This document shows positions 2,276 through 37,004 of a stretch of 64,000 nucleotides of DNA, piece after piece. Within the stretch, counting starts at the first letter, position 1; each line of letters opens with the position of its first letter. Below the pieces are notes generated by a model. That model saw only the letters and a program-made list of their open reading frames with translations. It ran no database searches and was not told the DNA's origin. A program made the position numbers and the translations under genes. The stretch is from Blasia pusilla (taxonomy: Eukaryota), in assembly GCA_050084515.1 (NCBI GenBank), contig CM114271.1, positions 16,182,001 through 16,246,000 of the forward strand, in the 5' to 3' direction.

Positions 2276-2402
2276 TGGGGTTGTCCAGTCATTCATGTGT
2301 ATGTGTAGAGATGTTAGGATTTATAGCTAGGTAGATGGATCTTAGAGATGTGCATACATGATAGCCGATGTATGTTGACAGCGATGTGTATTCGCACAAT
2401 AC
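2276..2402 (+). mobile_element. Terminal fragment related to the 3' end of the Gypsy family
   Basis: CGATGTATGTTGACAGCGATGTGTATTCGCACAATACA resembles 756-791 CGATGTATGTTGAGTAGCAATGTGTATGCACACAACA. Confidence 0.45.
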
Positions 2403-2871: not shown

Positions 2872-3587
2872 CAAGGTTGCACAAAAATGTACTTGTTTGT
2901 CCATGGGAAGGACAAGTCTGAACATATCCACGGACCTGCACAACGGGTCTCCTGTTCGGATATTTTTACTATCCAGGTCGCTTGCGTGGTCTCAAGATGT
3001 AGGAATGGGTGCAAGCAGGGATCAAATGGATGTGCAGGCTACGAGATCTAGCCAAGACCGTATCCAACCTATGCGTGGGCCACACGGGCCACGTACGTGG
3101 GTGTTTGATGCAGACGACAGGTCGCTAGACTACATGCAGGTCGGTTGAGCCCGGGTCTGTGTTTCATGTGGGTGGGCCCAAGTGTACGCCGTGGAAACTT
3201 GACCCTGCATAGACATGTTCATCTTGCAGACAGACATAAGTCCGCGAACATGGGCTTTTTCCGTGTGCAAGGTTGCACAGGAATAGACATGCAGCCCGGG
3301 TAGCTTGCCTAGCCCGTAGTGGGCACTCGCATTGGACGAGCCTGCACTGATTTTGTGGTCCACGCAAGGCCCGCACATGGCGGGCTCTACGGCGCTACGC
3401 GGGCCTAAACCTGCCTTGCGGGCCACAAAACTGGTGATGGGCTCTGAGGGCAGGCTTGGATGCGAATCACGAGTACCCAGGCCTGCAAAGAGATGTTTGT
3501 CCTCGGGACGGACATAAGTCCGCATACATGAATATGTTCGCGGACACCTACTTTGTTTGTGTGCAACCTTGTCCGTGTGCAACCTTG
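2872..3587. mobile_element. Non-autonomous hAT-like DNA transposon (MITE)
   Basis: 12-bp perfect TIRs CAAGGTTGCACA / TGTGCAACCTTG, flanked by an 8-bp TSD GTGCACGT (2864-2871 and 3588-3595). An 8-bp TSD with short CA-starting TIRs is typical of hAT. No credible ORF. Confidence 0.8.
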
Positions 3588-9229: not shown

Positions 9230-17640
<8,411 letters not shown>

Positions 17641-20600
17641 TGCAGTCCTTCAATTACCTCCCACCAAGACGAAAGGAACCAGAGATTCTTAAAAGAAGGC
17701 CATGGTTTCCACCAAATTGCGTGAAGGAAAACAGACGAGGACCACTGAAAATCTTTAGGCAAGGTGGCTAAAAACCGGGAACGAAGGGCGTGTGAGGAGA
17801 AATCTCAAGTTGTATAGCCAACAAAATCCACTGGGTAAGACTCCTGTCCGAATTGAGGAGTGCTCCGACGGGATCATAGGACACGCATTAGATGAAAGAG
17901 ACACCAACGAATCCTATCTGCGTGTATGGCGAACTTTCTCGGGCCATGAAGTCTGCTCTAAACTACTTCAAGGAACATTCGGGGCAAGGAAAAAACACGT
18001 CCTCTAGTAGCTGGTGGCAATCCTAAGCGTGTCAAAAGCTTCTCTTTGATAATGACTTGTAATAAACCCGGAAAAAACTCCACGAGCGGCCGCGGTGATG
18101 TCCATCATGTCCTTGGGATCATTTCGAGTTCCAGAATTTAAAGACGACAGCAGGGCTTGCTCATGTCCGAATTGAAAGTAGATACCAACGATTCGAAAAG
18201 CTAACTACGTACAATACCGCTCCGAATTTTTCCATCTTCAAGAATCATGAAACGTAGTCGCATGTTCACTTATGATTATAATCCAGAATCAAACACTTCT
18301 AACAAGACTAAAAACGACTGCAATTCAAAGTGCACATCACCAATCCACTAGAAGATGCAGTAAGACGTACCATAGAGCAGCAAACAAAACTTCTTGTCCT
18401 CCAAGCGAAATGGGCCGCACAAAGCTCCATCGTCACCAACTTCACGAACGCTTCTGCGTATGGAGCAACGCTCTGGCTTCGGCTCTCATCGGCCCTCTGG
18501 CTTCAGCCTGAGCTGCAAAAATTAAAGAGGCCAGTGCATCCACTGCGTTCCAAGCGGACAAGAGGCGGGTCACAAGGTCTGCCAAGCGTCGCAATAACGC
18601 CGTCGCGATGTACATGGTGATCTCGACGGAGACGTGGTCACTATGAGCAGAAACACCTCTCCGTCGCATTTCAGACGGCCTACTGGATAGGGACGTCGCG
18701 ATGCGTCCAAATATTGACGGGTGTCGAGCGGAGAGAGATGACAGCGCCTCCGGACAAATGCATCCGTCGTGTTAGTGACGGTTATCTCGACGGAGAAAAT
18801 GCAGTATGGAATGAAAGTGAGAACAAGATACTTTGAGGATATTGTAGTTATTATATGCTAAAAAACAATTTTGGGCGCTTGCAACTAGTGGCGTTGGAAC
18901 TTGTTGCAAAACTGCTTACAAGTCTACCAAGTATGCGGTCTGAAAGGGCAGTTTTGGTGGTAGCAATTAAGTGAAAAAAAATTAGGAGCAAGAAAAAATA
19001 GCTATTTGTTAACTTTGGAAATATTAGATAATTTTCGAGTGGTAGGACATGCCCAATTGGTAAGATAAGAAGTGAGTAACTTTAGTGTATAAATCAGATA
19101 CAAATGCAAAACACACCGAGTGCATAAGGTTTGTATAATTATAAGTGACTGAAATGGAAGCAAGGGTATTCTTATAGCATATTGTGATTGGCACATTGTG
19201 AACGATTAAATAGTAGAACATGAAATCATAAGGTTTTTTATGGATTTTATTAGAGTATTATAAGTGCCTGGAAAGGGGTTGTTTTAGTTGTGATTTAACA
19301 AGTTTCCGAATAGCAAAAGAAAAATTTGTATATGAATGAGATTGCAAATGGAGGTGGCTTGTGTATGTTTGTATGCGCAATGTAGAATGATAGTTGGATG
19401 TGGTAGAGAGCCACACAAAATGTAATTAAGCAAACTAAAATGAAAGATTGCAATGTAAATAAACCAAAGAGAATAAGAGTGAGTAATGATCTCAACCATT
19501 GCAAAATAGCACTGACAGAGACAATTGTGTACTTGAGTCTGAGTGCTTTTGCCAGAGACTTTCTCAAAATCTGCAAAAAAGACTTCTAGGAGAGATAAAA
19601 ATTGCCACAAAACTAATTGACACGTCTATTTCCGATGCAAAACAACAAACACAATATGGATTTAATTGTCAACATCTGTAGTTAAAGCTTGGGATTATCC
19701 TGAATTAAATGCTCGATGTCTTTGGAGAAGTCACCAAAGTCATCTTTTGCATTTTTCACTTGTTCTTTCACAGTTTGATGAGCTAGCAAGTTAGAAGCAT
19801 GTTTGTCATAAGTTGAATCTAATTTCCAAGTAAGATCGCGTATTCGTGTAGATAATTGATCAGATTTCTCTTCAACTTGACTCAATGTCATGCATGCATT
19901 CTAATATACTTGTACATGTAATGATACTACATGATGTGATGAGCACTCATTTTTTTCCCCTTTGGACTACATCAATGTGTTCTTGAGGGATCCTAACACT
20001 TGGCACACCATTCACCAGATTAAATCTTCCTCGATGACATGGTAGTCTGGTTGTGATATGTTGCTCATGAGTCATGAAATGACAGAACTAGTGTGCAGTC
20101 AGCGTAAGTGGGAAATAAGTGTATTGTAGAATAAGTCTGGAGATTATGTAGAGAGTTGTATATCGCTAGTGTATGAAAAAAATCTTTTGGTTTGAAATAG
20201 AATTGAAAGTTGTGCAAATGTGAATGGTTTTGTAGCCTAAAATGAGAAATAGATTAGGTTAGGAATTCACGGAATTTTGAATTCAAGGAGTATTGAATTC
20301 ATTTGTAGGAGCTCCTTTGTGTAGGAGTTTTAGGAATAGTAGGAATTGGGGAGCTTGTGAAGTTACTTATATGTGTCCTTTAGCACGTGGATCTTGTCAA
20401 TGGTAAATAAGAGGTAGCTTAGTGAAGAGAAATGGAATTATAAGAGTTTTGATTGATGCATCAATGAGAGGTGCTATGTATTTCGACTTTCTTACAAAGT
20501 AGGGTGATATTAGAGGACATGTTAATCAAACAGAATGTTCTAACACGAGCATAATGGAGTATTACCGATACAAATATCTGAAAACAAAATTTGCACTAGA

Positions 20601-22036
20601 TGTTTTTAATTAGGAAAGAATGAAAAAAACCTTCTCTGCAGAGATAACATGGTTTTGCAAAATGGAATTTGCGTATTTGGTAAAATGATGTAATGTTTTT
20701 AGGAGTATCATCAAGTTTGGCATATAGCTGCAGTAGGCACTAAAGGAGTTCATGCTTGTAGGAGTTAAAATTTGGAAAAACAGAAAGAAGGTATTATTGC
20801 CTAATACATACAGAGATATTCTATATGTGGTACTAATATTTGCTTGGTGATCCCATTGACAGAAGACCGAGGCTGTAGCCAGTGCCTGCATATCACAAGG
20901 TACAACGGTTCAGATTGCTGAATTATAAATGCAAATTGAAAAAAGTAGAAGGAACGTGTGCATGTGGAAGAATAGAGCTTGGAAGAATGGAGGTAGAAAA
21001 GCAGGTACAATCTGAAAAATGGATGAATGCAGCATTGGTATAGGGCGAGTAGCATATTTGTAGAATGTACTAAGGAGGCCTACTCAAAGATGAATTAAAA
21101 AATTTGAATACATATAAGGTAGAAGAAAAAGAAGGGCACTTGAAGTATGAATAGTTATAGAACATTTTACTTGCAAATCAGTTACGAAGCAAGGACTGAT
21201 TAATCCCTGACTGGAGCTTTAACTTCGGGTTGTGCTCAATGAGAGGGTTAACTTCAGCAATGAAGTCTTTGAAATGCCTTTGTGCTTCTTTCAAATTCTC
21301 CTTAAGATCTGAAACAATGTGCATATGGATGTCGTTCTCCTCGTAAAGCGCAGATAGCTCGTCGTTGAGGTTGTCTCTAATATCTTTATCCAATCATGGG
21401 AGTTATCCAATTGTGCCATGACTCCCAATTACACGTGAAGAGGAATAGTGGGACGAAGTGAACCATGGTCTGTTCGTGATTGCACCTCTAGTTGATGCTA
21501 CGGTGGAACAATGCAAGGAGTTGGAACCGAGTAAGGTTGACATCTTGAAGGTTGCCTACTTCTCATCTGGAAGTACATAAGCCAACGAGAATGTAGGGTT
21601 AGACCAGCATGGACATCTCTATAACGAATTGGTGGAAGGTAGTGAACAGGAGAAGCAGTGGTAAAATTTGAAAATCAGAATCCATGTTGAAGCAATGAAT
21701 ATGAATTACGACAATTGTCGTGCCCATACACATCGCTACACAACATACATCGCTATCACCGAACACACACACAAACACGCACGATCCCATGCTAACTCAT
21801 GGCATCCAAACAACGAGACAAGAAGTACCAAAATATCTCCAATTGCCCCCCTAGCTGGTGGTTAGGTCCCTCTAACTCCAGAAAGCAATCTATTCCTACC
21901 TACCATGACATACATCTCTCGAACGCTAAGAGCAAGAAGGCCGGGTGCTCATGTGGCCCCATCGTTAGTCGCCTTCCTGTCATCCATGTCAGAGAAAAAG
22001 GTCGAGATCGAAACCTACCTAATATCTCCTCTATGT

Positions 22037-22170
22037 ACATCTGGGACACATCCATTGTCCCCGAGGAACCCTAGTAGAGGTGGCGTCAGACATGCCATAT
22101 GCCAACCTCTCGAACAACCATCATAGACTAGCATCGTGGCCGCACCACGGGCAGAACCACACAACATACA
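22037..22170 (-). pseudogene. PHD-type zinc finger at the integrase C-terminus
   Basis: RCMLCGSARGAATMLVYDGCSRGWHMACLTPPL, then after a 1-nt frameshift VPRGQWMCPRC. This is a C4HC3 pattern with the diagnostic W; the third Cys is mutated to Tyr (TGT>TAT). Confidence 0.85.
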
Positions 22171-23330
22171 ACGCAAGCCTATAGGAACTACTGCTAAGCT
22201 CGGATCCACTGTACTATCAATGTTAGGAAGGTGACATGGTGCACAATTACGCACATGGTCCTTCCATACCATACCATCGCGTCCCTCCACCAAGAGAACA
22301 CCGGATGGCAAAACGTCACGCACTCTCAGGATAGTGCGCCTTGCAGTCACATCCAACGTCGTCGGTGCCGTCTACTGTAAGTAGACATAATCTCCTTGAT
22401 GAAACCTCCGGATAGTTGGTCGATAACCACCACCCCGAATAGTCGCATACCTCAACGTATCCCGATGTTGCGCAATCGCAAAGTTCTCGAACGCCATGGG
22501 CATCACTCTGTGAAATAACTCAGCCCTCTGAGAACATGCTCACACCCATACATCTGGGTCATCAAGGTCCAGCACCTCACCAGCATCTCGACGAATGGCC
22601 GCAGGTAAATCTGGCTCTCGGCCATAAAGTAGCAAGTACGGTGAAAAAGACGCTAAGGATGCCTGCCTGCTGAATCTGTATCCCATCGCCAACCATGGCA
22701 ACTCGAGGTCCCAATCTCCTAGGTGACCTCTCTGCAAGCCATACTTGTGTAAACCCCTCTTCACCGTCTACACAACTCTCTCCGCTAATCCATCCGCCTT
22801 GGCATGATCTCGTGAAGTTGTGCGGTGCTCGATCAGTGCTTGATCACACAAGGCTTGGAACTCACCCCAAAACTCGGTACCCTGGTCTGTCAATACCTCA
22901 GCCGGTGCGCCATAATGACTCAGCACTCTGTCAAGGAAGGCATAAGCTACTCCCTCACTCGCTTTGTCAGGCAATGCAACCAACTCGATCCACTTCGAGA
23001 AGTGCTCGACCATCACCAACACATAACGACTGTGACGCTTTGTCAAAGGCAAAGGTCCTACAAAATCCAAACTCCATCTATACCCTAAGCTCATGATCGG
23101 TAATGGATGCAATTGTGGAGTCGGAGCATTGAACAATGCTCGGACCGGATCACACACCATGCACCTGGCAACAAACTGCTGAACGTCAGTGTGCATGCCT
23201 CGCCACCAATATCGAATCCGAGCAAGTCAGACGTCCGCTTCACCCCAAAGTGACCCAAATCCTTGTGGGCATGCTGCACTAGTCGTGCTCTCTGCGAAGG
23301 ATGCGGCACTACGCGTACTCTGCCATCCTC
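22171..23330 (-). pseudogene. Gypsy integrase (HHCC Zn finger plus D,D35E core)
   Basis: HAHKDLGHFG..CMVC, WSLDFVGP, VLTDQGTEF, ADGLAERVV, SPYLLLYGREP. Confidence 0.93.
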
Positions 23331-23699
23331 CTAAACCCTCAAAACATGTGTCCCCTCCCAACGGAACCGTCTGGCCCGCTGTAGGATCCAATCTCGCTCT
23401 CTAGCACCCATAGTGCTCGCAACGCTTCCAGTACGAAGGTACTCCAAGACTACTCCATCATCATGAATATCTTGGCCACCTGTCGTCTCCTCACTGGCCT
23501 CGGGATCCAAGGACTCTCCATTAGACCTTGCCATCGAAGTCTCCACACTCTGGCTCTCCATAGCCAACATGCCTAAATAGGCTGACGCGTGCCATCCTGG
23601 CACCGACTCCTCATCACTCTCTCCATGCCATCGAGCTCCAGTCGCATCTCGCTGACTCGGGCATGGGTTACGACTCAACCCATCTGCATCCCGGTTGAG

Positions 23700-24089
23700 C
23701 GTCCCAGGTCTATGTACCACGTGAAAATCATACTCCTACAACAACAGAGCCCATCTCACAAGCTTCCTTGTAAGCTTTTCGGACTCCATCAACCACTTCA
23801 GTGGTTGATGATCAATGATGATGGTAAAGGGGTTGCCGAATAAGTAACACATGAAATGCGCGACTGCCCACACCGCAGCCAAGCACTCACCCTCATACGA
23901 GCTGTATTTTGCCTTTGTTGCGTTGTTCCAGCGGCTAGCGTAAGCCACCATGAACTCTCTACCCTCATCATCATGCAGGGTGAGCACCGCTCCAAGCCCC
24001 AACATGCTCCAATCTGTGTGCAACTGGAAAGGACGCCCCCTGATCGGTCTCCTCAAGATAGGCGCAGACGTTAACTTGTCCTTGAGCAA
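23700..24089 (-). pseudogene. Gypsy RNase H
   Basis: LTSAPILRRP..FQLHTDWSMLGLGAVL..VAYASR..YSSYEGECLA..IIDHQPLKWL. Confidence 0.92.
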
Positions 24090-24095
24090 CTGAAA

Positions 24096-25030
24096 TGCTC
24101 ACTCCTGCTCATCCCCCCAGTGCCACTCGTGATCCACCTTGGTCAGCAAGGTCAGTGGCTTCGCAATTGGACTGAATCCCTTGACGTATCGTCGATAGAA
24201 GTTCGCCAATCCCATGAATGCGCAAACACGGCTCACATCTGTAGGGCGTGGAATGGGTGAGATACCCTCTACCTTCGTTTGTTGAACACCAAGGCCCCCT
24301 GGGTATATCGTATGACCCAAGTACTCAATCTGGTCGTAGAAGAACTTGCACTTGCCTGGATGTAGCTTCAGCCCATGTAATTGCAATCATCAAAATACCT
24401 CCTCTAGTTGTCGCTCATGCTCCTCAACCGTGGTGCTAAAGACTACGATGTCATCAATATAACACCTAGAAAAATCCAGACCAACCAAGATCCTATCCAT
24501 GACCCTCTGAAACTCAGCCGGGGCATTCTTTAACCAAATGGTAAGAACCGCCACCGGTACAAAAAATCCTTCCCGTGAGGATCGATGCCCCAAAATGCCA
24601 TCTTGTGCCTGTCCTCCAATCTGATATGCAGCTGATGGTATCCGGCTCGCAAATCCAAAGACCTTTGCGTGACCAATCGCATCAAAGATCTCCTCAGGGG
24701 TGGGCATGGTATACCTATCGGACTTCGTCTGCCGATTGATAGGTCGGTAATCCCCACACATCCGCCTATCCGTCCAATTGCCATGCACATCCTTCTTGGC
24801 GGGCATGACAGTGGCAGATGCATACTCACCATGCACATCTCCACTAGTCCTTCTCTGACCAAGTCCTCGCTCCTACTCTCAATCAGAGCCCTCTCCATAT
24901 CACTGTACCTGTAGGGTCGTCAAAAGATCGGCGTATTACTCGACTACTCAATGCGGATCCTCGGTCCCTTCAGCGTACCCAAATCCTCCATGCTAAACTC
25001 AAAGCAGCTCCTATAACTCCTGAGGAAGTG
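24096..25030 (-). pseudogene. Gypsy reverse transcriptase
   Basis: RRMCGDYRPIN, LDLRAGYHQ, LPFG/LKNAPAEFQRVMD, CYIDDIVVFS, KCKF..IEYLGH, FMGLANFYRRYV, across frameshifts. Confidence 0.95.
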
Positions 25031-25399
25031 ATGTATTCGGCGCCGCTCTCCTCCTGTCAACTTAGGGCCCATATCTGGCTCCCAAGTCTCCATCGTGACT
25101 ACGGTAGGACTCTCCGGCGTGGATATCGGTGGTTGCTATGGTGCAACCCCGTCTCTAAGAACAACACTCGGCCGCTCTCCTGCAGCCAATTGCAAACTCT
25201 GATCTCCTCCACGTGCAGTGCCCGAAACCACGCTCGATGTTGTGGCTATCATCTCCTTGCGTACCTGCAAAACATCCCAAGAAGTCCAAGGATGTCTCTC
25301 CTGATCTCCTCAGGTCTTGCCCCCAGCCATTGCCTCCACCATCTCGGTAGGCATGGGGCTCACCAACGCAATCGTTGTGATCTGTCGCGATCTCATACG

Positions 25400-26380
25400 A
25401 CGTTGTTCAGCCACTCCCAAGTTGAGGCTCCATGTCAAGCAGTTCAGGTCCATCGCCTGACCCAAGACATGGCATCGTGATGCCTCTGACACTGATGGTA
25501 CTACCGTCACTCCTGTGGGAAATCCCATTGCTCGCTCCCTCTCGTCGGCGTTGGGCTCCACTAACCGCTGAACCTGGTCATCCCAAACCAAGCCAGGACC
25601 GGCCTCCTTGTATGCATAGGAAGGGGGAAAACTTACAAACGTGGGTAAGGTTGCCCGCGGCCTGCCTACCCTGTTGACCACAGTCCACTGTAGTCGATCA
25701 TCGTGCCTCACTGCCTGTGATCGATGACCTGGATCCAGAATGGAATCCACTAACAAATGGGAGGGGCTCCACTCTCGCATACGCCCTCCGTAACACCGCA
25801 TGGGGCACCAAGTTGGTCCACCATAGACACGGGCGATGGGCTCTAGAACCTACACTCGCCGCATCCAAGAACACTTCTAGGCCGATCCAGGCACGCACCT
25901 GATGAGCACTCGTCACCACCCGTGACCGGAAGTCTCCTAAGATCAGCACATTCTCCAGAATGTAGGCTGGAGAATGAGACTGGTGCTCCTACAACTGCCG
26001 TAAGACCCTCAACATCTCCCAAAACAACCTGGATCGAGTGTCAACCAACCCACTGCCTTGTCTAGCACTCGATTGGCCCTGACATGGCCAACCGGCAATG
26101 ACCAAATCAATGGTCCCTACCCGCTCTAAGTCCTACGCCCCCAACAACAAAATATCCCTCGGTAGGGAACTCTAATACCTCAGATCGCTGGACGCTTGCA
26201 TACAATAAGTCGGGAAAACGTAGGCGTAACTGTGCCACATGTCGTAGTGAGACACGCCTCGCAACATCATCACTCTCCACATACAGGTACTAGTGTACTC
26301 GCACTTCTGCCTGCAAAACAGCAGCTAACCCGGTGTTAATCCCTCCAAAGAGATCTAACACTCGAATACCCTCCTCCGGG
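25400..26380 (-). pseudogene. C5 cytosine DNA methyltransferase domain (DNMT3-like) embedded in pol between protease and RT
   Basis: Manual translation gives motif I IRVLDLFGGINTG (~26330-26367), II YLYVESD, IV IDLVIAGWPCQGQS (catalytic Cys codon 26082-26084), V RSRLFWE, VI YILENV (ENV 25947-25955), VIII LDAASVGSRAHRPCLWWTNL, IX ERERAMGFPTGVT and X RCHVLGQAMD. The domain is broken by three TAG stops and two frameshifts. Confidence 0.92.
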
Positions 26381-26582
26381 GTACACCACACAATGGGTGT
26401 GGTATCCAAGGGTGTCATCGTAGCAATCCTTGCTACCTCGGGTTCCTCAGACCCGTCACGCTCCGGTGACGGGTCTGAGGAACTCCAAGGGCCTGACGGG
26501 TCTCACTGTTAGGTGATGGGCGCCTAAATGAGCTAAGGCACCCATCACCTAACTGCCATCCTGGTCTGTAGGACATTGACTC

Positions 26583-26920
26583 CTCCTAGTAATCCACGGA
26601 AAAACCCATCGGGTATAACACTACTCCACCAACCAAGACGTCGTAGGACTCTGCATCAATCACTATCGCCTTGGCGCGCACCACAGACTCATCTGTAGGA
26701 TGTCTCGGGCGAATTCTCACCACGACCTCTTGTCGAGTGATATATTGTGTGGTACTCGCTCCACCCAAGGATGTCTGTATCCGAAATGGACAACGCTCCA
26801 CATCGGCTCTCGTCAAGCCCAATCCTCTGAATGACGCTTTCCCCAACATCAGGGGTTGCGCTCGAATCCAACAAGATGCGCTGCGGACTAAAAGCTCTAT
26901 CTCCAGGACTCACCAACTGG
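26583..26920 (-). pseudogene. Retropepsin-like aspartic protease
   Basis: RILLDSSA (degenerate DSGA active site), then after a frameshift MLGKASF..YDVLVGGVVLYPMG. Confidence 0.8.
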
Positions 26921-27299
26921 AAGATCTCTCGTCAGTTATCCAGCAACACAATACCAGGAGAAGCCATGGCACGCTCTATCGCGGGTCTAGAGGGCATCTC
27001 CGCCATTCTAGCATCCGCAACCTGCCATGAATCTGACGTGGATGGTCCGAGCATCCGCTCCAAGGGCAGGTCCATCACCTCCTCTGCAATCACCTCTGAA
27101 CGTGATGCAGGAACTCCAACTCCGCACTCACATAGCGACGCGGCCAGCCGAAAAGCCTCGTCGGGCGTACCCCCCAACGTCATAACATCGGAAGCAGAAA
27201 ATAAAGGAGTGCGGTACACAATGGTGGCCGCCCCCAACAATGTGCTCGACACATGCCCCTCCTGAGCATCAACAATAGGAGTCATTGCACTCGCTTCTC

Positions 27300-29000
27300 C
27301 CATTGCCCTCCGTGCTTGCACACCAAAAACATCACCAACTCTCAAGGAACTTTGATGAGGACCCATCGATGGGGTCCTCATCGCTTCGGACAACGTGAAA
27401 GACTGAGGAAGCCTAGTCTGTTTTTAGGCTTTCCCTCGTTGTGGATCCAACTGTGCGGCTGCTCCACGCGTCACAACCGCAACGGCCTCCATGTGGGCAA
27501 CCAGGATCCTCCAGATCTCTAGCTGCTCCATATGATGTCGATGCCATGGATCCGGCATCGGGTAACCTCAATGCCATAGCGGCAATCTGCTCCTGTAGCT
27601 ATTGTATCTGAGTAGCCATCCCAGCCTCACGTCCAACGTCTCCCTCGGCGCGTCTAGGTGGTGGTATTCTACCTACTCCACGTGCAGCTCCATCACCCTG
27701 TCGGGCAACTCCAGCTCCTCATCCCCCAACGGGACCACCTGGTGCACGATCTCTAGGCCCACCCGGACCGGCTACTTGCTCTGGTGCCCTCTCTGGCCCT
27801 CACTCCGAACGTAACTCAGGATGTAAACTGAAACACCTGGCGCGTGTATGACCATACCTCTGACAATAGTCACACTGATAACCTCCTGGTGCAACACCAT
27901 CTCCTCCTCCATGCTGAGGCATACGTCCATGACCCTGACGAGTGCAATGGCATTGATGATGGGCTCCACCACATGACCAACAAGTAATAGTAGGCGGCTG
28001 CTGTTGAGCCGCATATGAAGGCGCAGGTCTCTGTACCACTTGCTCCCAGTATCCTCCTTGAGCTCGTGGTGCCACAGTTGACCTATCTCGGAGTCCACGT
28101 TGTTGCACAGGTGGTGCAGCCAATCGCGACTGCTCTCACCCAAAACCCATGGTGGCTACGCTCTCCTCCGCCATGTTGCGCTCAATTTTCTCGGCGGTTC
28201 TAAAAACATCTCTCAACATAGGGGAGGTGTTCATAAGAAGCGCCCCCTCCCGCACCCGTGGCCGCAGGGTCAGGTCCAGCATCGCGTACCATGACTGGAT
28301 AGCCTGAGCCTCTGTCACCCCCTGAGTGACGTTGATCAACCGGTGCAAGCGAGTGTAAGCCTCACGTAAACTCTCACCCGGGCGCCTCTGGAAGTTGTGG
28401 ATGCTCCGCAAATTTTCCATCCGTACCCCTTGGTAGCTCGCCCTCAACTCAGCAAAGAACTCAACCACGGGGTTGAACCTGGGACGAACCCGACTAGACG
28501 GTGCAACTGCTCTAGTGCGAGTGACCCCTCCTAAAACATCACTAGTGGAAGAGCAAGTAGCCTCTCCTAACTCCTCCTCCTCCTCATCTGGGAACGGCTC
28601 CATCCATGACACATAGTGTGGGTCGTAGGAGAGTAGCCATGCCTCAATCTCTTGGGCATATCTGTGGGAAAACTCATGGTAATTGTCCATTGGTGCCCCC
28701 TCTAAATGCTGGAACATAGCGTTCCATGCTATAAACGGGTTGAACTCTCTAGAATTCCTGGCCCGATGGGAGTCGCACCAACTCCTAAACTTGCTATGAA
28801 ATCATGCAACTCAATCGTACCTACTGCACCTGAAAACCTACGCTGTCCTCTACCCCGGTCGTCCATCTCGTACGCCCAACTGGTAGGACCACTCACAATG
28901 TGTGGCGATGTGCTTACAAATTCCTCTACACCCTCCCCCTTCTCTGACAATGACACAGAAGGAGGTCGAGGTGGTCCTTGAAGTGAAGACCCTCGGAACC
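27300..29000 (-). pseudogene. Gag with two zinc knuckles
   Basis: FQRRPGESLREAYTRL (retrotransposon gag Q..GES motif), CWSCGGAHHQCHC and CDYCQRYGHTRARC (CX2CX4HX4C); frameshifted. Confidence 0.88.
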
Positions 29001-31194
29001 TCACGCCACTCCGCGTAAAACCTCTAGAGCTACTCTCGGGTTCACCACCTCGCCTCTCAAAGTCCCGAACGGACGTCGTGATGACCCTCGTGCCCTTCTC
29101 ACCCGATCACTCTTACCTCGCGAGTAATCCCTCAATCACTCATCCCAAACATGCGGCACTCGATCTACACTCTCCTTCCCCGAGAGATGTAACGTGCGGC
29201 AATAAGCGGCGTGGTGGGGCATATCGACTAGGCTATCATTTCATCGATAACCTATCCTCAACTCCGGACATCCCACACAGGTCTATGTCCCCTAAACCAC
29301 ATACATAAATGATGCTCTCAGCATCCACACACCCAATATCCCCAAATAAACTACCCAAATCCCAGAATCCCTCACACGTGCAGGGTAAAGGACCAGAATG
29401 GGTAACCTGAACACATGTCGATGTCGTTGCTCAGCAACTGCAAATCTTGACCCCAACTCGATCGTGGAGACATCTCCTCCAATCAGCAAGTCATACTCCT
29501 CCCATACTGACGTTGCTCAAAACTCCTCGATAGACTGTGCAGTTCCAGCGGAACGGTGCGGCGTTACAGGTGGCACGGAACGGCTACGAACGGCACGACC
29601 CTCGATGGTGGGATGCGGCACTTGGCGGCATACCCTCCTCAATCAAAATAAACCCACACTCTGCTCCACAATGCCGGAGCAGCTCCGCGATCGAGACGGT
29701 GCGGTGCGGCCACGAGCGGCACGGCGCGGCAATCAGCGGCGCGTTGCGGCTAAGGGCGTCACGGCACGGTACTTGATCGTCGTTGAGCGGCTACCAATCA
29801 CAACATAGCAGCATGAAATCAAAACTCAAACACTATAACATGACGTCATATGCCATCACAGGTTGATGACGGTGGCGGCCAAAACAAAGTACGTGATGGC
29901 AACGCAAGTCCAAAAATTAACGAACGATGTGGAAGACCCTCCACTCCGTAACGGCGGCAATGGCAACCAAGGGTGGACAATGGACGGTGGACCATTGACG
30001 GTGACGGTAGACCGTTGATGGTGACAGACAAACGGTGACGGTGACAGTTGACCATTGATGGTGACGATTGACCGCCGATGGTAGAAGTTGACCGTTGATG
30101 GTTGACGGTGATTATGACGGTGGCGGCTGGTTTAGGGTTTGCACAATTTAACCCTAAAAATCGCCTAGCAATGGCAGTTTTGCAATATTGACCATAACTT
30201 TTTGCTCGTAACTCCAAATTGCGCCTGTTTATTGCACAGCGTGCACAACTTCACGATCTACGCCAGCACAAAAAATATTTGGAATCGGACATTCCAGTAA
30301 AAACTGACAGGGACTGTCGTAAAGCCCAATGTCTCTTTCTTCTACCCAACATTTGGCAGCGCTTTCGCACTGATTTTTCCCAAAAAAAATGTAAAACCTG
30401 TAAAAATGCAAATCAGCAAGCTACATGGTGCTCCTGAAAGCACCGGCATGGGGCAACCCGCCCCCATACTCAATCCCTATCAGAAATTGGGCAGAGCTTC
30501 CGCGCGCCACTCTTCCACACGAAAAATCGGCAAATGCAAAGAACAATCCAAGCAACCCTTGCTCCGATGAGCACTCCCATGAGCCATTGAACGGGGAACA
30601 CGGTCCCCAACTTGCAAAAACAGCGAGTGACCAGCGAGCTCCCCCATGAAGCTCTCTCACTCTTTCATTCTCTCTTTGTAAAGTAAGATCCAATCTCTCT
30701 CTACACAATTTCACACCATATCTCTCAAAGGTGTGCACTCTCTCTCATGTCAAACCAAACCCACTCTCCTAATGAGAGGCTTGGATTACACTCACAAGGC
30801 AAGGGACCATAGCTCCGCCGCCTTATGCCAAGAGGTTCAACAAAGAGAGAATGAGCTCTCAAGCTCTCTCTTCTTGGGATATATACCCCTCCCCTCTCCC
30901 AAGCTCTCTCCATGGTAACCTATTCTCCCAAGTCATCTCCTTGGGTCTTGACGTGATGTAGGAGGTCAAAGTCCACTTACCAAAAATATAAAGTTGATCA
31001 TATACTCAAAATGGTACTTACCTAAAATAGTAAGTTCCTCAATATGGCTCCAAATGAGCCAAAACGAAGAGAAAACTTGCTCTCTTAGGTTTCCCGGGGC
31101 CTCAGCAGGTCATCCTCAACATCCTAGGCATGTCCTCCACTACTCTTGAAGACGCTCTACTAGATCTCACCGATCTATCCTAAAGGAGGTGACA

Positions 31195-33326
31195 ACTACC
31201 TCGCCTCTCAAAATCCTGAAAGGATGCCGTGTTGGCCCTTGTGCCCCTCTCACACGATCATTCTCAATCTCGCGAGTAATCCCTCAATCACTCAAACTAA
31301 ACATGCGGCACTCAATCTACATTCTCTCACTAAGACGTGTGTTATGCGGCAACAAGCAGCGTGGTGTGGCAAATCATTGATTTATCGTCTCATCGACAAA
31401 CCATCCTCAACTCTGGACATCCCACACAGGTCTATGTCCCCTAAACCCATACATCATCGATGCTACAAGCATTAGCACGAAACCCAATATCCCAAATAAC
31501 TTCCCAACATCCGAAAATCCCTCACACATGCAGGGTAAGAGACCAGAATGGATAACTAGACAATAATGTTGATATCGCTCTTTGGCAACTGCAAATCTCA
31601 ACCCCAACTTGGTCGTGAAGACAACTCCTCCAATCAGCAAGTCGTACTCCTCTCGTATTGACGTTGCTCAAACCTCCTCGATGTGCGGTGCACGTCGAGC
31701 GGTCTGGTGCGACCCTGGCAACATGGAACGGCTACAAACGACATGGCACTCGGCGATATACCCTCCTCAATCAGAAATTCACATGCTCTGCATCTTAATG
31801 AAGGAGCAGCTCCGCGATCGAGACGATGTAGTGCGGCCACATGTGGCACGACGTGGAAATCGGCGGCATATTGCGGCTACGGACGTCACAACACAATACT
31901 CGATCATCGTCGAGCGGCTAACAATCCCAACATAGCAACATGAAATGAAAACTCAAACACCATAATCCAAGGTCACTTGCCATTATTGGTTGATGACGAA
32001 ACTGCGATGACGGTGGCGACCAAACCAAAGTACGTGGTGGCGGTGCAAGTCAAAGAATTAAAGGTGGTCGTGGAAGACCCTCCACTCCGTAATGGTGGCA
32101 ATGGAAACCATAGGATGGACAACGGACCGAATCGGCTCTAAAAGCGACACTAAGCGCGAAACGGCCGGCGGTGGGCGGTGGACGGTGGACCGTTGACCGT
32201 TGACCATTCCAATTGACCATTGACCATTGAAGGCGGACCGTTGATGGTGACTATGACGGCGACGGCTCGTTTAGGGTTTAATCAATTTAACCCTAAAAAT
32301 TGCCTAGCAATGGCAATTTTTCAAGATTGACCATAACTTTTTGCTCGCAACTCCAAATTGCGCACCATTTATTGCACAGCGTGCACAATCTACAACAATG
32401 TCAAAAAATATTTGGAATCAAACATTGCAGTAAAACTGACAAGGACTGTTGTAAAGCCCAGTGTCTCTTTCTCTTACACAAAATTTGGCAGCGCTTCCGC
32501 ACAGATTTCTCCCAACGAAAATGTAAAACATGTGAGAACACAAATCTGCAAGCTACATGGTGCTCCCGAGAGCACCGGCATGGGGCAACCCGCCCCCATA
32601 CTCAATCCTTAACAAAAATTGGGTAGTGCTTTTGCGCGCCATCTTCTACACGAAAAATTGGCAAAGGAAACATCACAAGTAAGCGGTTCTTGCTCCGATG
32701 AGCATTCCCATGAACTGCTGAACGGGGAATACGATCCCCAACTTGAAAAGCCAACGAGTGATCAGCGAGCTCCCCCATGAATCTCTCTCACTCACTCACT
32801 CATTCTCTCTTTGTAAAGTAAGATCCAATCTTTCTCTATACCATCTCACACCATAGTTCTCAAAGATGTGCACTCTCTCTTATGTCAAACCAAACCCACT
32901 CTCCTAATGAGTGGCTTGGGTTACACTCACAAGGCAAGGGACCATAGCTCCGCTGCCTTATGCCAAGAGGTTCAACAAAGAGAGAATGAGCTCTCAAGCT
33001 CTCTCCTTGAGGTATACCCCTTCCCTCTCCCAAGCTCTCTCCATGATAACCTATGCTCCCAAGTCACCTCCTTGGCTCTTGACCTAATGTAGGAGGTCAA
33101 GGTCCACTTACCAAAAATAGAAATTTGATCACATACTCAAAATGGTACTTACCTGAAATAATAAGTTCCTCAATATGGCTCCTAATGAGCCAAAACGAAG
33201 GGGAAACCTGCTCTCTCAAGTTTCCCAGGGCCTCAAACAAATCATCCTCTACCTATTGATCCTGTCCTTTGCTGCTCATGAAGGCGATCTACTAGATCTG
33301 ACCGATCTATTCTAAGAGACATGACA
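31195..33326 (-). mobile_element. Second, diverged copy of the ~2.1-kb 5' leader/terminus of the DNMT-Gypsy family
   Basis: Collinear with 29045-31194 over its length. It starts TGTCATG on the minus strand at 33326 and stops at the position equivalent to the gag start. Confidence 0.85.
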
Positions 33327-36300
33327 TCTTGGACGCGGACCCACACAATGTGAGGGGCGATGAGCTTGGGACAATTGATTTCTTCGAGAAAAATAACAGA
33401 GAGAAAATGAACATTGGAGTTGGTCCAAGACATTAGCTTTTGGGGGATGAGAAGTTAGTTGGGAAGAGCAAAATGGAGGCGCTTGTTGCCGTAGCAATTG
33501 AGGCCCCATAAAAGGGTAAGAAAGTAGGGAGGAAGTCAAAGAGAAGGCATGCAGTGAGTTCTTTTATATCACGGGAGCTCAAAGCTGATGAGTAGCAAGT
33601 GAGAGTAGTCAGGGGCGAGGCACAACAATCTGCTACCTATAAGGTTCTACGTCCATCTCAAACCACTTGTGACAGTGCGGAAGAGGCTCAGGGAGTGAGT
33701 CCCTTGAGCATTGGAGTTGGAGTCATATATGTTCAAATGGTGGTTGAACTTGAACCTGAATGAAAGAAATGTAGACTCTCCTACTATGGAAACAGGAGAA
33801 AGTGGTAGGATGTTGGAAAGCGCTGAAGAGGTCAAGGAGGAATCAAGTGAGGAACAAAGCTTTGGCGAAGTAGATGAAGTGGTGTTAGGATTGACAGGTC
33901 CGCCATCATAACTAGGTGCGGAGAGTTTTATCGCAAGCATTTTAACAGAATCTGGACTAGATGATATCGTAGAGTTCAAAATGGTTGATTCCACTCCATA
34001 TGTATTCGTTAACCCAAAATCGCAGTCCAAGACACAAGCGCAGACCAAAGTGGTTGTAGAAAAAAGAGCAAGCACAAAGTAGAATCGGTTGAGGAGTACT
34101 TACCTCTCTATCGCTTGCGGCTTGTGTGGAGTTAGGATTCACCGCAGATTGATTGAGCACACACGATACCCTTACAAGACTGAAACACTTTGGAAAGGGT
34201 GGGGAGAAAGACGTTCAATAACTAGTATTATGATTAACAAAGAGGCCCAAACGAGTTGTAACAAGACTAACAAAAGCCCCAAGGGAGCCAGATAAGAACC
34301 GTGCAAGACGCGCAGAGGTAGGCGGAGATTACTCTTCGCATCAAACAAGAAGATTCAGAAACAAAGCGTGACTTGAACACGAGCAAGAATTGGAGCTCTG
34401 CATCTTAATGAAGGAGCAGCTCCGCGATCGAGACGATGTAGTGCGGCCACATGTGGCACGACGTGGAAATCGGCGGCATATTGCGGCTACGGACGTCACA
34501 ACACAATACTCGATCATCGTCGAGCGGCTAACAATCCCAACATAGCAACATGAAATGAAAACTCAAACACCATAATCCAAGGTCACTTGCCATTATTGGT
34601 TGATGACGAAACTGCGATGACGGTGGCGACCAAACCAAAGTACGTGGTGGCGGTGCAAGTCAAAGAATTAAAGGTGGTCGTGGAAGACCCTCCACTCCGT
34701 AATGGTGGCAATGGAAACCATAGGATGGACAACAGCCGAATGCGGCTCTAAGCAGCACTAGGCGACGGAAACGGCCGACGGTGGACGGTGGACGGTGGAC
34801 CGTTGACCGTTGACCATTCCAATTGACCATTGACCATTGAAGGCGGACCGTTGATGGTGACTATGACGGCGACGGCTCGTTTAGGGTTTAATCAATTTAA
34901 CCCTAAAAATTGCCTAGCAATGGCAATTTTTCAAGATTGACCATAACTTTTTGCTCGCAACTCCAAATTGCGCACCATTTATTGCACAACGTGCACAATC
35001 TACAACAATGTCAAAAAATATTTGGAATCAAACATTGCAGTAAAACTGACAAGGACTGTTGTAAAGCCCAGTGTCTCTTTCTCTTACACAAAATTTGGCA
35101 GCGCTTCCGCACAGATTTCTCCCAACGAAAATGTAAAACATGTGAGAACACAAATCTGCAAGCTACATGGTGCTCCCGAGAGCACCGGCATGGGGCAACC
35201 CGCCCCCATACTCAATCCTTAACAAAAATTGGGTAGTGCTTTTGCGCGCCATCTTCTACACGAAAAATTGGCAAAGGAAACATCACAAGTAAGCGGTTCT
35301 TGCTCCGATGAGCATTCCCATGAACTGCTGAACGGGGAATACGATCCCCAACTTGAAAAGCCAACGAGTGATCAGCGAGCTCCCCCATGAATCTCTCTCA
35401 CTCACTCACTCATTCTCTCTTTGTAAAGTAAGATCCAATCTTTCTCTATACCATCTCACACCATAGTTCTCAAAGATGTGCACTCTCTCTTATGTCAAAC
35501 CAAACCCACTCTCCTAATGAGTGGCTTGGGTTACACTCACAAGGCAAGGGACCATAGCTCCGCTGCCTTATGCCAAGAGGTTCAACAAAGAGAGAATGAG
35601 CTCTCAAGCTCTCTCTCCTTGAGGTATACCCCTTCCCTCTCCCAAGCTCTCTCCATGATAACCTATGCTCCCAAGTCACCTCCTTGGCTCTTGACCTAAT
35701 GTAGGAGGTCAAGGTCCACTTACCAAAAATAGAAATTTGATCACATACTCAAAATGGTACTTACCTGAAATAATAAGTTCCTCAATATGGCTCCTAATGA
35801 GCCAAAACGAAAGGGAAACCTGCTCTCTCAAGTTTCCCGGGGCCTCAGCAAATCATCCTCTACCTATTGATCCTGTCCTTTGCTGCTCATGAAGGCGATC
35901 TACTAGATCTGACCGATCTATTCTAAGAGACATGACATCTTGGACGCGGACCCACACAATGTGAGGGGCGATGAGCTTGGGACAATCGATTTCTTCGAGA
36001 AAAATAACAGAGAGAAAATGAACATTGGAGTTGGTCCAAGACATTAGCTTTTGGGGGATGAGAAGTTAGTTGGGAAGAGCAAAATGGAGGCGCTTGTTGC
36101 CGTAGCAATTGAGGCCCCATAAAAGGGTAAGAAAGTAGGGAGGAAGTCAAAGAGAAGGCATGCAGTGAGTTCTTTTATATCACGGGAGCTCAAAGCTGAT
36201 GAGTAGCAAGTGAGAGTAGTCAGGGGCGAGGCACAACAATCTGCTACCTATAAGGTTCTACGTCCATCTCAAACCACTTGTGACAGTGCGGAAGAGGCTG

Positions 36301-37004
36301 GGGAGTGAGTCCTTGAGCATTGGAGTTGGAGTCATATATGTTCAAATGGTGGTTGAACTTGAACCTGAATGAAAGAAATGTAGACTCTCCTACTATGGAA
36401 ACAGGAGAAAGTGGTAGGATGTTGGAAAGCGCTGAAGAGGTCAAGGAGGAATCAAGTGAGGAACAAAGCTTTGGCGAAGTAGATGAAGTGGTGTTAGGAT
36501 TGACAGGTCCGCCATCATAACTAGGTGCGGAGAGTTTTATCGCAAGCATTTTAACAGAATCTGGACTAGATGATATCGTAGAGTTCAAAATGGTTGATTC
36601 CACTCCATATGTATTCGTTAACCCAAAATCGCAGTCCAAGACACAAGCGCAGACCAAAGTGGTTGTAGAAAAAAGAGCAAGCACAAAGTAGAATCGGTTG
36701 AGGAGTACTTACCTCTCTATCGCGCTTGCAGCTTGTGTGGAGTTAGGATTCACCGCAGATTGAGCACACACGATACCCTTACAAGACTGAAACACTGGAA
36801 AGGGTGGGGAGAAAGACGTTCAATAACTAGTATTATGATTAACAAAGAGGCCCAAACGAGTTGTAACAAGACTAACAAAAAGCCCCAAGGGAGCTGTAAT
36901 AAGAACCAGTGCAAGACGCGCAGTAGGTAGGCGGAGATTACTCTTCGCATCAAACAAGAAGATTCAGAAACAAAGCGTGACTTGAACACGAGCAAGAATT
37001 GGAG
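31785..37004. repeat. Near-identical head-to-tail tandem duplication, units 31785-34394 and 34395-37004 (~2610 bp)
   Basis: Identical or near-identical ORF pairs (32300/34910, 33242/35853, 33711/36320); differences are mostly small indels. Confidence 0.93.
33327..34394 (-). mobile_element. Possible heavily degraded L1-like LINE segment (ORF1 end / endonuclease start); duplicated and extended at 35938-37190
   Basis: Only weak motifs: LPTARL, QCFS/CKG (knuckle-like) and NAQGL (resembles the APE N-terminal NxxGL motif). Confidence 0.3.

Follow-up and report, generated by a model that had tools for sequence, protein, structure and literature searches.

A stretch of 64,000 nucleotides from Blasia pusilla (contig CM114271.1, positions 16,182,001 to 16,246,000; hereafter referred to as the window, in whose own numbering all coordinates are given) carries on its minus strand a short Cys/His-rich segment directly behind an integrase. 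The locus raises the question of whether this segment is a genuine PHD finger, and if so, whether the finger reads histones and has a functional connection with the DNA methyltransferase (DNMT) of the same element. On the basis of its sequence, the segment at 22031-22170 is identified here, with very little doubt about either its identity or the anatomy of the surrounding element, as the decayed PHD finger with which the integrase ends in a Ty3/gypsy-type retrotransposon, now dead, that belongs to the Gypsy-DNMT3 elements. The complete explanation, in which such a finger would in addition tether integration by way of the histone H3 tail, is somewhat favoured over its negation.

Organisation of the element and decay of its finger

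Pfam and tblastn searches place gag, protease, DNMT, reverse transcriptase (RT), RNase H, integrase and PHD in this order along the minus strand, with protease, RT, RNase H and integrase following one another, and gag upstream of them, as in Ty3/gypsy elements. The features recognised in the window are as follows.

About 21715-29207, minus strand: Ty3/gypsy-like element as a whole
22031-22170, minus strand: PHD remnant (C4HC3), stop codon included; Cys3 changed to Tyr, frame change near 22075 ahead of the closing Trp-x-Cys-x-x-Cys
22171-23298, minus strand: integrase, with H2C2 zinc domain, rve core (PF00665, E-value 3.1e-15), SH3-like C-terminal domain and linker to the PHD; single frame with four in-frame stops
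23736-25132, minus strand: reverse transcriptase and RNase H; the ORF2 equivalent begins here
25403-26445, minus strand: C5 DNA methyltransferase, DNMT3-like, closing the ORF1 equivalent; broken by stops and divided among three frames, motifs I, IV (GWPCQ), VI (ENV) and X being recognisable
26541-26909, minus strand: aspartic protease region, recognised by alignment with the protease regions of P0105 and P0070
27800-28851, minus strand: gag with CCHC knuckle
29055-29207, minus strand: A-like terminal repeat on the upstream side of gag; each unit of a tandem array opens with it
21715-21836, minus strand: B-like repeat, some 195 nt beyond the PHD stop in the downstream direction
793-2285, minus strand: second family copy, truncated, running from RNase H as far as the first two Cys of the PHD
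451-792, plus strand: adjacent A-like (451-603) and B-like (671-792) repeats, the end of an oppositely oriented family copy that abuts the second copy

As judged from sequence similarity, the ORF1 equivalent comprises gag, CCHC knuckle, protease and the DNMT3-like methyltransferase and the ORF2 equivalent comprises RT, RNase H, integrase and PHD. The Marchantia ORF1 protein P0070 was aligned to 28851-25271 with 40-64% identity and the ORF2 protein P0005 to 25132-22075. Many relatives of ORF1 occur in Marchantia polymorpha. The closest named relatives of the element are found in liverworts, that is, in land plants.

A single frame, extending from 23298 to about 22075, encodes the integrase and the finger as far as its sixth ligand position, the first Cys codon being at 22170-22168, and four in-frame stops (each represented by an X in the read-through translation P0001) interrupt this frame. 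Near 22075 the frame shifts, and the Trp, Cys7, Cys8 and the stop codon (22033-22031, the start coordinate of the preliminary description of this locus) are read in another frame; this last piece was matched separately by tblastn at 22075-22037 and 22072-22034, with P0035 and P0009 as the queries. Seven of the eight zinc ligands survive, Cys3 being the one lost. Because of the four stops, the lost ligand and the frame change, the window copy is a pseudogene and cannot function.

A possible objection is that the Cys/His pattern in such non-coding remains is a product of chance, and the 118-residue in-frame ORF taken alone scores 22.0 bits (E-value 1.7e-4) against PF00628, under the curated cut-off of 24. 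However, the pattern continues the integrase frame, residues 255-427 of the read-through translation align residue by residue with 61 database proteins (best E-value 2.2e-68, 70% identity) and the shifted last piece finds its own matches. Together with the complete set of eight ligands in 59 of these 61 relatives, the alignment and the tblastn matches refute a chance origin, the probability of which is considered negligible. In the PF00628 search, a check proposed in the preliminary description, the fragment in the window falls under the cut-off, and the four relatives checked (P0002, P0005, P0009 and P0035) lie well above it, with 37.7-50.4 bits.

The second family copy is 72% identical in nucleotide sequence to the main copy and, as had been observed earlier, shares its lead-in and the RCMLC motif. 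The codons for Cys1 and Cys2 are at 809-807 and 800-798, and directly after the second of them the copy ends, where the inverted terminus of another family copy starts at 792; it is on account of this cut that only the first Cys pair is seen. The PHD-coding stretch may be a hot spot for such cuts.

A flanking pair of two identical LTRs, as expected of a Ty3/gypsy element, was not found for the window copy. Repeats of 2.1-2.6 kb at 29044-37007 were rejected as a conventional LTR pair, as they are arranged in tandem and on one side only. Among nine loci of relatives examined, four (L003, L014, L024 and L040) carry split direct repeats in the arrangement A-coding-B-A-B, one (L007, cut by the contig end) has A repeats only and no repeats were found in the other four. 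In the window, an A-like repeat lies upstream, a B-like repeat lies downstream, and A and B are adjacent at 451-792; the main copy has no second A-B pair, and its A-like piece sits inside the 2.1 kb tandem unit. The missing half of an inverted copy in L014, sought as proof of a nested insertion, was not found beside repeat A1.

Conservation of the finger and its pairing with the methyltransferase

PF00628 is present in 60 of the 61 database relatives, and the 59 with all eight ligands carry the finger 99-107 residues past the QHRD motif of the integrase; in the remaining two (P0022 and P0038), the sequence ends or diverges within the finger. In intact relatives, the finger is thus a conserved and complete C4HC3 PHD domain, in frame with the integrase, which disposes of the two sequence-based objections foreseen in the preliminary description, namely a consensus short of zinc ligands and a finger out of frame. 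Both the earlier proposal that a C4HC3 finger follows the integrase at the place of the chromovirus chromodomain, here after the integrase C-terminal domain, and the proposal that it is a trait of the family are upheld by these results. A chromodomain, the mark of the chromoviruses, was not detected by Pfam in the window or in the relatives scanned. An uninterrupted eight-ligand pattern was observed in only 13 of the 50 metagenome loci that reach the region, and most genomic copies are therefore wrecks. One named relative that combines integrase and PHD is P0009 from the volvocine alga Pleodorina starrii. The algal-type relatives have an extension of 300-480 residues C-terminal to the PHD, and a Pfam search over the whole of P0035 (E-value up to 0.01) predicted no domain in this extension.

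The methyltransferase of the window appears to be DNMT3-like and to agree in this with the published Gypsy-DNMT3 elements, as suggested by the recognisable motifs and by P0063, a relative's enzyme 68% identical to that of the window, whose matches among solved structures are to DNMT3A/B/C only (29 of 29), though they are weak (best E-value 2e-7). The enzyme lies upstream of RT in all 41 assessable metagenome loci, as in the window, and between RNase H and integrase in 30 of the 31 assessable single-ORF relatives. The co-occurrence of PHD and DNMT, a check suggested at the outset, was found in all of these 41 loci and in the same 30 of the 31 single-ORF proteins, and their pairing is a trait of the lineage and not a local oddity. 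Of 30 algal-type single-ORF proteins, 27 retain the catalytic Cys of motif IV, mostly as Glu-Cys-Gln; Pro-Cys-Gln was found in only three. The precomputed Pfam assignments flag a DNMT in only three of 33 proteins detected by the family profile, and standard Pfam annotation misses the enzyme in most algal members.

In the lineage of the window, the DNMT stands at the end of ORF1 and the PHD at the end of ORF2, as in P0105 and P0005, and more than 1000 residues separate them. A physical reader-writer unit is not supported by this arrangement, because the two domains belong to different ORFs and would be separate proteins after processing. The mobile reader-writer module envisaged in the preliminary description is hence retained as co-inheritance of the finger with the DNMT and is given up as a physical unit.

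Sequence and fold of the finger

Residues at the positions of interest were counted in the fingers of 59 relatives (roughly 40-70% identity). Two positions before the His is a Gly in 53 fingers and a Trp in one, and an aromatic residue is found within three residues before Cys1 in only 10; these are the positions assigned here to the aromatic cage residues. Cys3 is followed by Asp in 57 of the 59 fingers, presumably the acidic residue that is placed at Arg2 of the H3 tail. The Pro-x-Gly-x-Trp motif ahead of Cys7 is largely kept (Pro in 51, Gly in 48 and Trp in 56), and the backbone around its Pro-x-Gly is assumed here to hold Ala1.

On account of the prevailing Gly and the scarcity of aromatic residues, the finger is predicted to be without an aromatic cage, as are the readers of unmodified H3K4 described in PMC3241642. 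In the same description, acidic residues are located at Arg2 and the hydrophobic residue before Cys3 inserts between Arg2 and Lys4. A hydrophobic residue at this position, a feature of the unmodified-H3K4 class, is found in 58 of the 59 fingers (Leu in 42, Phe in nine, Ile in three, Met in three and Val in one). An acidic cluster N-terminal to Cys1, which also belongs to the features of that class, was observed in only 18 of 59, when counted as at least two Asp or Glu among the eight preceding residues. The loop between Cys2 and Cys3 carries acidic residues in 45 of 59 fingers, but not in the closest relatives, the five nearest to the window having 0-1 acidic residues before Cys1 and 0-1 in the loop. 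Since these five have at most one acidic residue at either place, discrimination of the state of Lys4 by the subfamily of the window seems doubtful.

A profile built from 32 fingers matches 127 PDB sequences, the E-values for cage-less H3-tail fingers being 1e-23 to 1e-12, and the best matches are CHD4, KMT2D/C, WSTF, PHF12, KDM5 PHD1, ATXR5, KAT6A, DPF3, BAZ2A/B, PHF21A, UHRF1 and AIRE. The fold was examined in a structural model of the relative L012, which has about 50% identity and takes the place of the broken peptide of the window. Mean pLDDT values over blocks of 10 residues are 87-92 in the SH3-like barrel, about 60 in the linker and 85-93 in the PHD, so that a low-confidence linker of about 20 residues joins the PHD to the SH3-like C-terminal domain of the integrase. 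The modelled PHD superposes at 0.6-1.4 A, with 37-50% identity, on BAZ2A and ATXR5 with H3, BHC80, free BAZ2B, MOZ, MORF and DPF3b; entries for UHRF1 and ORC1b, titled with unmodified H3, were also matched, at 6.5 and 8.2 A over longer alignments. By profile and by predicted fold, the nearest fingers are accordingly the cage-less PHDs solved with unmodified H3 tails (BAZ2A/B, BHC80, ATXR5, MOZ/DPF3, CHD4 and UHRF1).

Compared with the cage-less fingers of this group (BAZ2A/B, PHF21A/BHC80, ATXR5, KAT6A/MOZ, the second finger of DPF3, CHD4, UHRF1 and AIRE), the finger described here likewise lacks the cage Trp and has the hydrophobic residue before and the Asp after Cys3; it differs in that the acidic cluster before Cys1 is mostly absent, it is borne by an integrase and not by a chromatin enzyme, and its binding is predicted. 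The ADD domain of animal DNMT3A/3L, too, accompanies a DNMT3-type enzyme and reads unmodified H3K4 (PMC3241642). However, the ADD domain is placed in the same chain as the catalytic domain and next to it, whereas the present finger is a plain single PF00628 PHD carried by the integrase at a great distance from the DNMT; the families detected here by Pfam were all of the PHD type, none of them ADD (E-value up to 0.1 for the ORFs of the window and 0.01 for the relatives).

Possible roles of the finger in integration

The finger of an intact element may bind the histone H3 N-terminus as do the cage-less PHDs that accept unmodified Lys4 and are unable to hold trimethyl-Lys4. The integration complex would thereby be held at nucleosomes that lack H3K4 methylation, at a distance from active promoters, and the finger would do the same job as the chromodomain in chromoviruses, with the DNMT acting separately on the new DNA. 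As the closest PHDs have been solved with unmodified H3, such tethering is the best guess available, and on the evidence of sequence comparison and modelling the chances for and against it are considered evenly balanced.

A true coupling of reader and writer would go further, the PHD guiding not just the integrase but also the element's own DNMT to H3K4-unmethylated chromatin, so that a new copy is methylated on landing, in parallel to the ADD domain of animal DNMT3. The almost invariable co-inheritance of the two domains, the exclusive matches of P0063 to the DNMT3 enzymes, the retention of the catalytic Cys in most single-ORF proteins and their domain order of DNMT-integrase-PHD, by which one mature protein could hold all three, are in favour of it, as is the presence of DNMT3A and DNMT3L among the readers of unmodified H3K4 in PMC3241642. 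On the other hand, RT, RNase H and integrase intervene between the DNMT at the end of ORF1 and the PHD at the end of ORF2, which would not form one chain after protease processing, and the DNMT occupies two places in two lineages while the PHD is always at the integrase end. That the PHD never leaves this end implies that it is tied to the integrase rather than to the DNMT, and coupling is regarded as unlikely. A role unrelated to histones, in which the finger, as a module stabilised by zinc, serves the multimerisation of integrase, its import into the nucleus or the binding of a host protein, appears no more probable than coupling. A few PHD fingers do bind non-histone partners (PMC3241642), and the subfamily closest to the window is without the acidic cluster that contacts Lys4; against this role, the residues that bind the H3 tail according to PMC3241642 are among the best conserved in the finger, and the solved fingers nearest to it in sequence and fold bind the H3 tail. 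Tethering to chromatin without H3K4 methylation thus remains the preferred role.

Both components have precedents, and the idea is less new than it was first rated, published work already covering Gypsy elements with a DNMT3 domain (PMC5890265) and retrotransposons whose PHD fingers may read chromatin (PMC6673714; bioRxiv 10.1101/2021.11.30.470311). KnitGypsy-Dnmt3 of Klebsormidium nitens (de Mendoza et al. 2018, PMC5890265) has a Gypsy-type polyprotein with a DNMT3-related methyltransferase and DIRS-style terminal repeats A-coding-B-A-B, the layout seen in four of the nine related loci and in traces in the window. It differs, in a comparison by description, in its host, a charophyte alga as against the liverwort-nearest element of the window, and a PHD is absent from the main text and one text supplement of that paper. 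Chromoviruses, the targeting of which to heterochromatin is cited in PMC6673714 and bioRxiv 10.1101/2021.11.30.470311, have a small domain of the chromatin-reader type at the same place after the integrase C-terminal domain; theirs is a chromodomain for methyl-Lys9, whereas here it is a zinc-binding PHD, the predicted ligand of which is the H3 N-terminus. PHD fingers as accessory domains of retrotransposons, with histone-tail reading or choice of insertion site proposed, are also described for REM1 and Gypsy-7a_cRei of Chlamydomonas, CR1-like elements and the PHD/TE fusions of Grau-Bove et al. (PMC6673714, PMC8557442, PMC9940879, bioRxiv 10.1101/2021.11.30.470311), the passages on these elements in the four sources containing no pairing of the finger with a DNMT. 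The EpiLTRs (bioRxiv 10.64898/2026.05.21.726589), LTR retrotransposons of green algae and Euglena, similarly combine DNA methyltransferases with a chromatin reader domain, but these are an adenine methyltransferase, a DNMT4-like cytosine methyltransferase and a chromodomain instead of a DNMT3-like enzyme and a PHD, and the EpiLTR text makes no mention of a PHD finger.

If the finger steers integration, the family would have arrived independently at a second solution to what chromoviruses achieve with a chromodomain, in an element that brings its own DNA methyltransferase. A more speculative and rather improbable extension is that chlorophytes, charophytes and bryophytes share a single old clade of split-repeat Gypsy elements, in which a DNMT3-type enzyme and an H3-tail-reading PHD have been together since before those lineages parted, and in which the algal DNMT-integrase-PHD protein would insert the element where chromatin is unmethylated at H3K4 and straight away methylate the new copy. 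If so, immediate methylation would be a strategy of self-silencing or stealth that makes the element tolerable to its host, and current annotation, with the DNMT flagged in three of 33 profile-detected proteins, would be hiding the clade. The proposed steering of integration by the finger is open to test, given its near-perfect co-inheritance with the DNMT in green algae and bryophytes; Marchantia has many copies of the element, and chromatin maps for it already exist.

Organisation of the element and its integrase end

A decayed Ty3/gypsy-like retrotransposon (the main copy) spans approximately 29207 to 21715 on the minus strand of the window, with the following coding regions:

28851-27800, minus: gag with CCHC knuckle
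26909-26541, minus: aspartic protease
26445-25403, minus: C5 DNA methyltransferase (DNMT) domain
25132-23736, minus: reverse transcriptase (RT) and RNase H
23298-22171, minus: integrase
22170-22031, minus: PHD-type finger

The Cys1 codon of the finger occupies 22170-22168 and its stop 22033-22031, the position at which the preliminary description began the feature. A single frame, interrupted by four in-frame stops, runs from 23298 to about 22075 and takes in the integrase together with ligand positions one to six; the frame changes near 22075, and the terminal Trp-x-Cys-x-x-Cys and the stop lie in a different frame. This shifted last piece was detected separately by tblastn with two relatives. 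Seven of the eight zinc ligands survive, Cys3 being replaced by Tyr, and the first ORF (gag-protease-DNMT, ORF1) is scattered over at least three frames. The main copy is a pseudogene.

The in-frame fragment alone gives a marginal match to Pfam PF00628 (E 1.7e-4, 22.0 bits; cut-off 24). A read-through of the integrase end and the finger identified 61 proteins among 371 candidates (best E 2.2e-68, 70% identity), 60 of which carry PF00628, with scores of 37.7-50.4 bits in four relatives scanned afresh. All eight ligands were recovered in 59 of the 61 by pattern search; the two misses (P0022 and P0038) end or diverge within the finger. In the 57 relatives having an exact QHRD motif, the finger starts 99-107 residues past it. 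The eight-ligand pattern, the near-constant spacing and the Pfam scores of the relatives thus show that the finger belongs to the integrase and is conserved across this lineage. The preliminary description of a C4HC3 finger following the integrase, with the same lead-in and first Cys pair in a second family copy, is therefore confirmed, with the qualification that the main copy carries stops, the Cys3 to Tyr substitution and the frame change; in intact relatives the ligand set is complete and in frame with the integrase, so the refuting outcome named in that description (a consensus without all eight ligands, or a finger out of frame) is not seen.

The metagenome loci examined (the best 80 of 550 confirmed matches, 50 of them extending to the integrase end) are mostly decayed. 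An uninterrupted eight-ligand pattern is present in 13 of the 50 that reach the finger, some of these having stops elsewhere; many loci have a ligand Cys substituted by Tyr, and in-frame stops are frequent; both defects also mark the window's copy.

Co-occurrence of the finger and the DNA methyltransferase

A DNMT lies upstream of the RT in all 41 loci that reach the integrase end and have at least 1700 nt upstream of the RT, with a median DNMT-RT gap of 541 nt and the same order as in the window. When all loci with at least 1700 nt upstream of the RT are considered, the proportion is 55/61; those without a DNMT (L046, L054, L057, L061, L076 and L080) are among the most distant matches (31-40% identity). 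A profile built from eight DNMT segments and run on the 61 integrase-PHD proteins detected the domain in 33, inside the same ORF and flanked by the RNase H and the integrase; the precomputed Pfam list marks only three of these.

DNMT in the same ORF among the 61 integrase-PHD proteins
Other than ORF2-type, with 700 residues or more ahead of the integrase motif (n=31): 30 (P0051 without)
ORF2-type, RT-RNase H-integrase-PHD (n=13): 0; DNMT encoded upstream in ORF1
Fragments with truncated N-terminus and part of the DNMT (n=3): 3
Too short to judge (n=14): not assessable

The pairing of PHD finger and DNMT is a trait of the lineage. Unlike the DNMT, the finger is always at the integrase end in both branches; the DNMT occupies the protease/RT interval in the window and its bryophyte-type relatives and the RNase H/integrase interval in the algal-type, single-ORF relatives. 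The DNMT of P0035 is 38-49% identical to that of the window, and the domain was either moved within the element or captured twice.

With the DNMT piece of the window as query, 66 of 587 candidate proteins were matched; the nearest named ones are from the liverworts Calypogeia fissa, Marchantia polymorpha and Riccia sorocarpa and the moss Sphagnum (58-68% identity). The solved-structure matches of P0063, a relative's DNMT 68% identical to the window's, are all DNMT3A, 3B or 3C (29/29), although weak (best E 2e-7). Motif IV reads GWPCQ in 45 of 65 matches of the search with the window's DNMT piece, the pattern not being found in the remaining 20; of 30 single-ORF proteins, 27 retain the catalytic Cys, for the most part within Glu-Cys-Gln instead of the usual Pro-Cys-Gln. 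Many of the DNMT relatives are ORFs of approximately 1250-1450 residues, and one of the relatives (P0105) combines a CCHC knuckle, an aspartic protease and a methylase by Pfam. Among the integrase-PHD proteins, the nearest relatives (P0002-P0008 and similar; 929-1155 residues) start just before the RT and terminate 2-13 residues past the finger. P0005 and P0105 share source and longest-sequence size (8955 nt), as do P0002 and P0107 (6232 nt), and from these matching lengths only we read each pair as ORF2 and ORF1 of the same element.

Most single-ORF relatives, including P0009, P0035, P0049 and P0062, carry a tail of about 300-480 residues after the finger, a few having shorter ones (79-150). 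Pfam (E up to 0.01) gave no match for the tails of P0035 and P0009; by eye, a Gly-rich 'DPW.GSG'-like motif bears a putative likeness to SAM-dependent methyltransferases.

For Klebsormidium, Gypsy elements that carry a DNMT3 domain and have DIRS-like repeats have been published (PMC5890265, available text), and the available text of a later study names such elements streptophyte Gypsy-DNMT3 (bioRxiv 10.64898/2026.05.21.726589). Retrotransposon PHD fingers, suggested to read histone tails or steer insertion, are described in the accessible portions of PMC6673714, PMC8557442, PMC9940879 and bioRxiv 10.1101/2021.11.30.470311. No published text pairing the two domains in one element was found: 'PHD' is absent from the main text of PMC5890265, and its sole match in the available text of the later study is 'PhD fellowship'. 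The figure and PDF supplements of PMC5890265 were outside this check, and the finger may therefore already be drawn there. What gives the present observation its value is that PHD and DNMT3 are inherited together throughout the lineage, along with the testable prediction on H3K4-unmethylated chromatin; the window's copy itself is a wreck.

Class of the finger and its proposed role

H3K4me3-reading PHD fingers possess an aromatic cage that invariably includes a Trp, whereas readers of unmodified H3K4 are without the cage and have an acidic cluster before Cys1 and a hydrophobic residue before Cys3 (PMC3241642, available text). Among the fingers of 59 relatives, 53 have Gly and one has Trp two residues ahead of the His, and 10 have an aromatic residue just before Cys1. 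Cys3 is preceded by a hydrophobic residue in 58 and followed by Asp in 57, while the Pro-x-Gly-x-Trp before Cys7 is conserved at Pro in 51, Gly in 48 and Trp in 56. Only 18 of the 59 possess the acidic cluster; in the five relatives nearest to the window, the stretch before Cys1 and the Cys2-Cys3 loop each contain 0-1 acidic residues.

When 32 of the 59 fingers were combined into a profile, it matched 127 PDB sequences, the best 60 of which include CHD4, KMT2D/C, WSTF, PHF12, KDM5 PHD1, ATXR5, KAT6A/B, DPF2/3, BAZ2A/B, PHF21A, UHRF1/2, AIRE and similar proteins; ING, BPTF and TAF3 were not seen among these 60. For an intact relative (L012), 167 residues at the integrase end were modelled from a 30-row alignment (mean pLDDT 74.6), with 10-residue block means of 87-92 for an SH3-like barrel, about 60 for a linker of about 20 residues and 85-93 for the finger. 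In Foldseek the modelled finger superposes at 0.6-1.4 A, with 37-50% identity, on the solved PHD fingers of BAZ2B, BAZ2A with unmodified H3K4 peptide, BHC80, ATXR5 with H3, MOZ, MORF and DPF3b, and at larger rmsd on UHRF1 and ORC1b entries with unmodified H3. The whole two-domain model matches the Tudor-PHD cassettes of PHF1, MTF2 and UHRF1 only loosely (rmsd about 10-14 A). The relatives thus have an intact, conserved and separately folding PHD finger that a flexible linker connects to the integrase C-terminal domain, and the finger resembles cage-less H3-tail binders.

Such a finger would bind the N-terminus of H3 in the absence of Lys4 trimethylation, and the bound finger would keep the integration complex on nucleosomes that lie away from active promoters, a job done in chromoviruses by the chromodomain. 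We give even chances to this combination of H3-tail binding and tethering, which predicts an association with H3K4-unmethylated chromatin that can be tested; the missing acidic cluster makes sharp sensing of Lys4 methylation doubtful in the closest subfamily. A non-histone role of the finger is improbable. The preliminary description had further proposed a mobile reader-writer module, of which the co-inheritance of finger and DNMT is borne out (41/41 loci, 30/31 proteins); direct coupling of the two is unlikely in the window's lineage because they are encoded in separate ORFs, and would be more plausible in the algal form, with its order DNMT-integrase-PHD.

Truncated copies, terminal repeats and surroundings

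The second family copy (approximately 793-2285, minus strand; 72% nucleotide identity to the main copy) shares the lead-in and first Cys pair and ends immediately after Cys2 (800-798), where the inverted terminus of another family member starts. Four copies of the window's subfamily are cut within the 45-codon PHD stretch:

window, 793-812
L014, 13700-14248 (also L013)
L043, about 4658-4760
L074, about 2840-2930

The cut points lie after Cys2, just past the His, just before the Trp-His and just past the sixth ligand, and those of the window and L014 adjoin the B-repeat end of an oppositely oriented family copy. They could mark a hot spot of insertion or recombination, or be due to chance. The missing half of the cut L014 copy was looked for and not found.

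No flanking LTR pair was found for the main copy in the window. When nine related loci were each compared with themselves, a split layout of the terminal repeats, A-coding-B-A-B, was observed in L003, L014, L024 and L040 (in L014, A at 3563-3851 and 13185-13473, B at 13005-13185 and 13474-13654), the same as that given for KnitGypsy-Dnmt3 of Klebsormidium in the Fig. 4 legend of PMC5890265 (available text). In L007, A was found twice before the sequence ends, and split repeats were not seen in L025, L053, L019 and L068. The window contains the following pieces, the second A-B pair being absent from the main copy:

29207-29055, minus: A-like piece, upstream of gag
21836-21715, minus: B-like piece, about 195 nt past the PHD stop
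451-792, plus: A and B adjacent, on the other strand

The A-like piece belongs to a 2.1-2.6 kb unit of a tandem array (29044-37007) directly upstream of gag. The array has about 3.4 copies, each unit opening with the A-like repeat; its last two units (31785-34398 and 34395-37007) share 98.4% identity, and the first shares about 80% with the others. Part of the unit is present inverted at 2-457.

A host tRNA 2-thiouridylase gene (MnmA/TRMU type) with introns lies at approximately 13655-17649 on the minus strand, its 5' end about 4 kb from the B-like repeat of the element; liverwort proteins are closest (62-65% identity over the part compared, 16942-17649). The host is accordingly a land plant whose nearest named sequences are those of liverworts. 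Further short repeats without relation to the element, in inverted, direct and tandem arrangement, occur at 41648-41775/54151-54278, 38696-38910/39560-39776 and 41977-43220.
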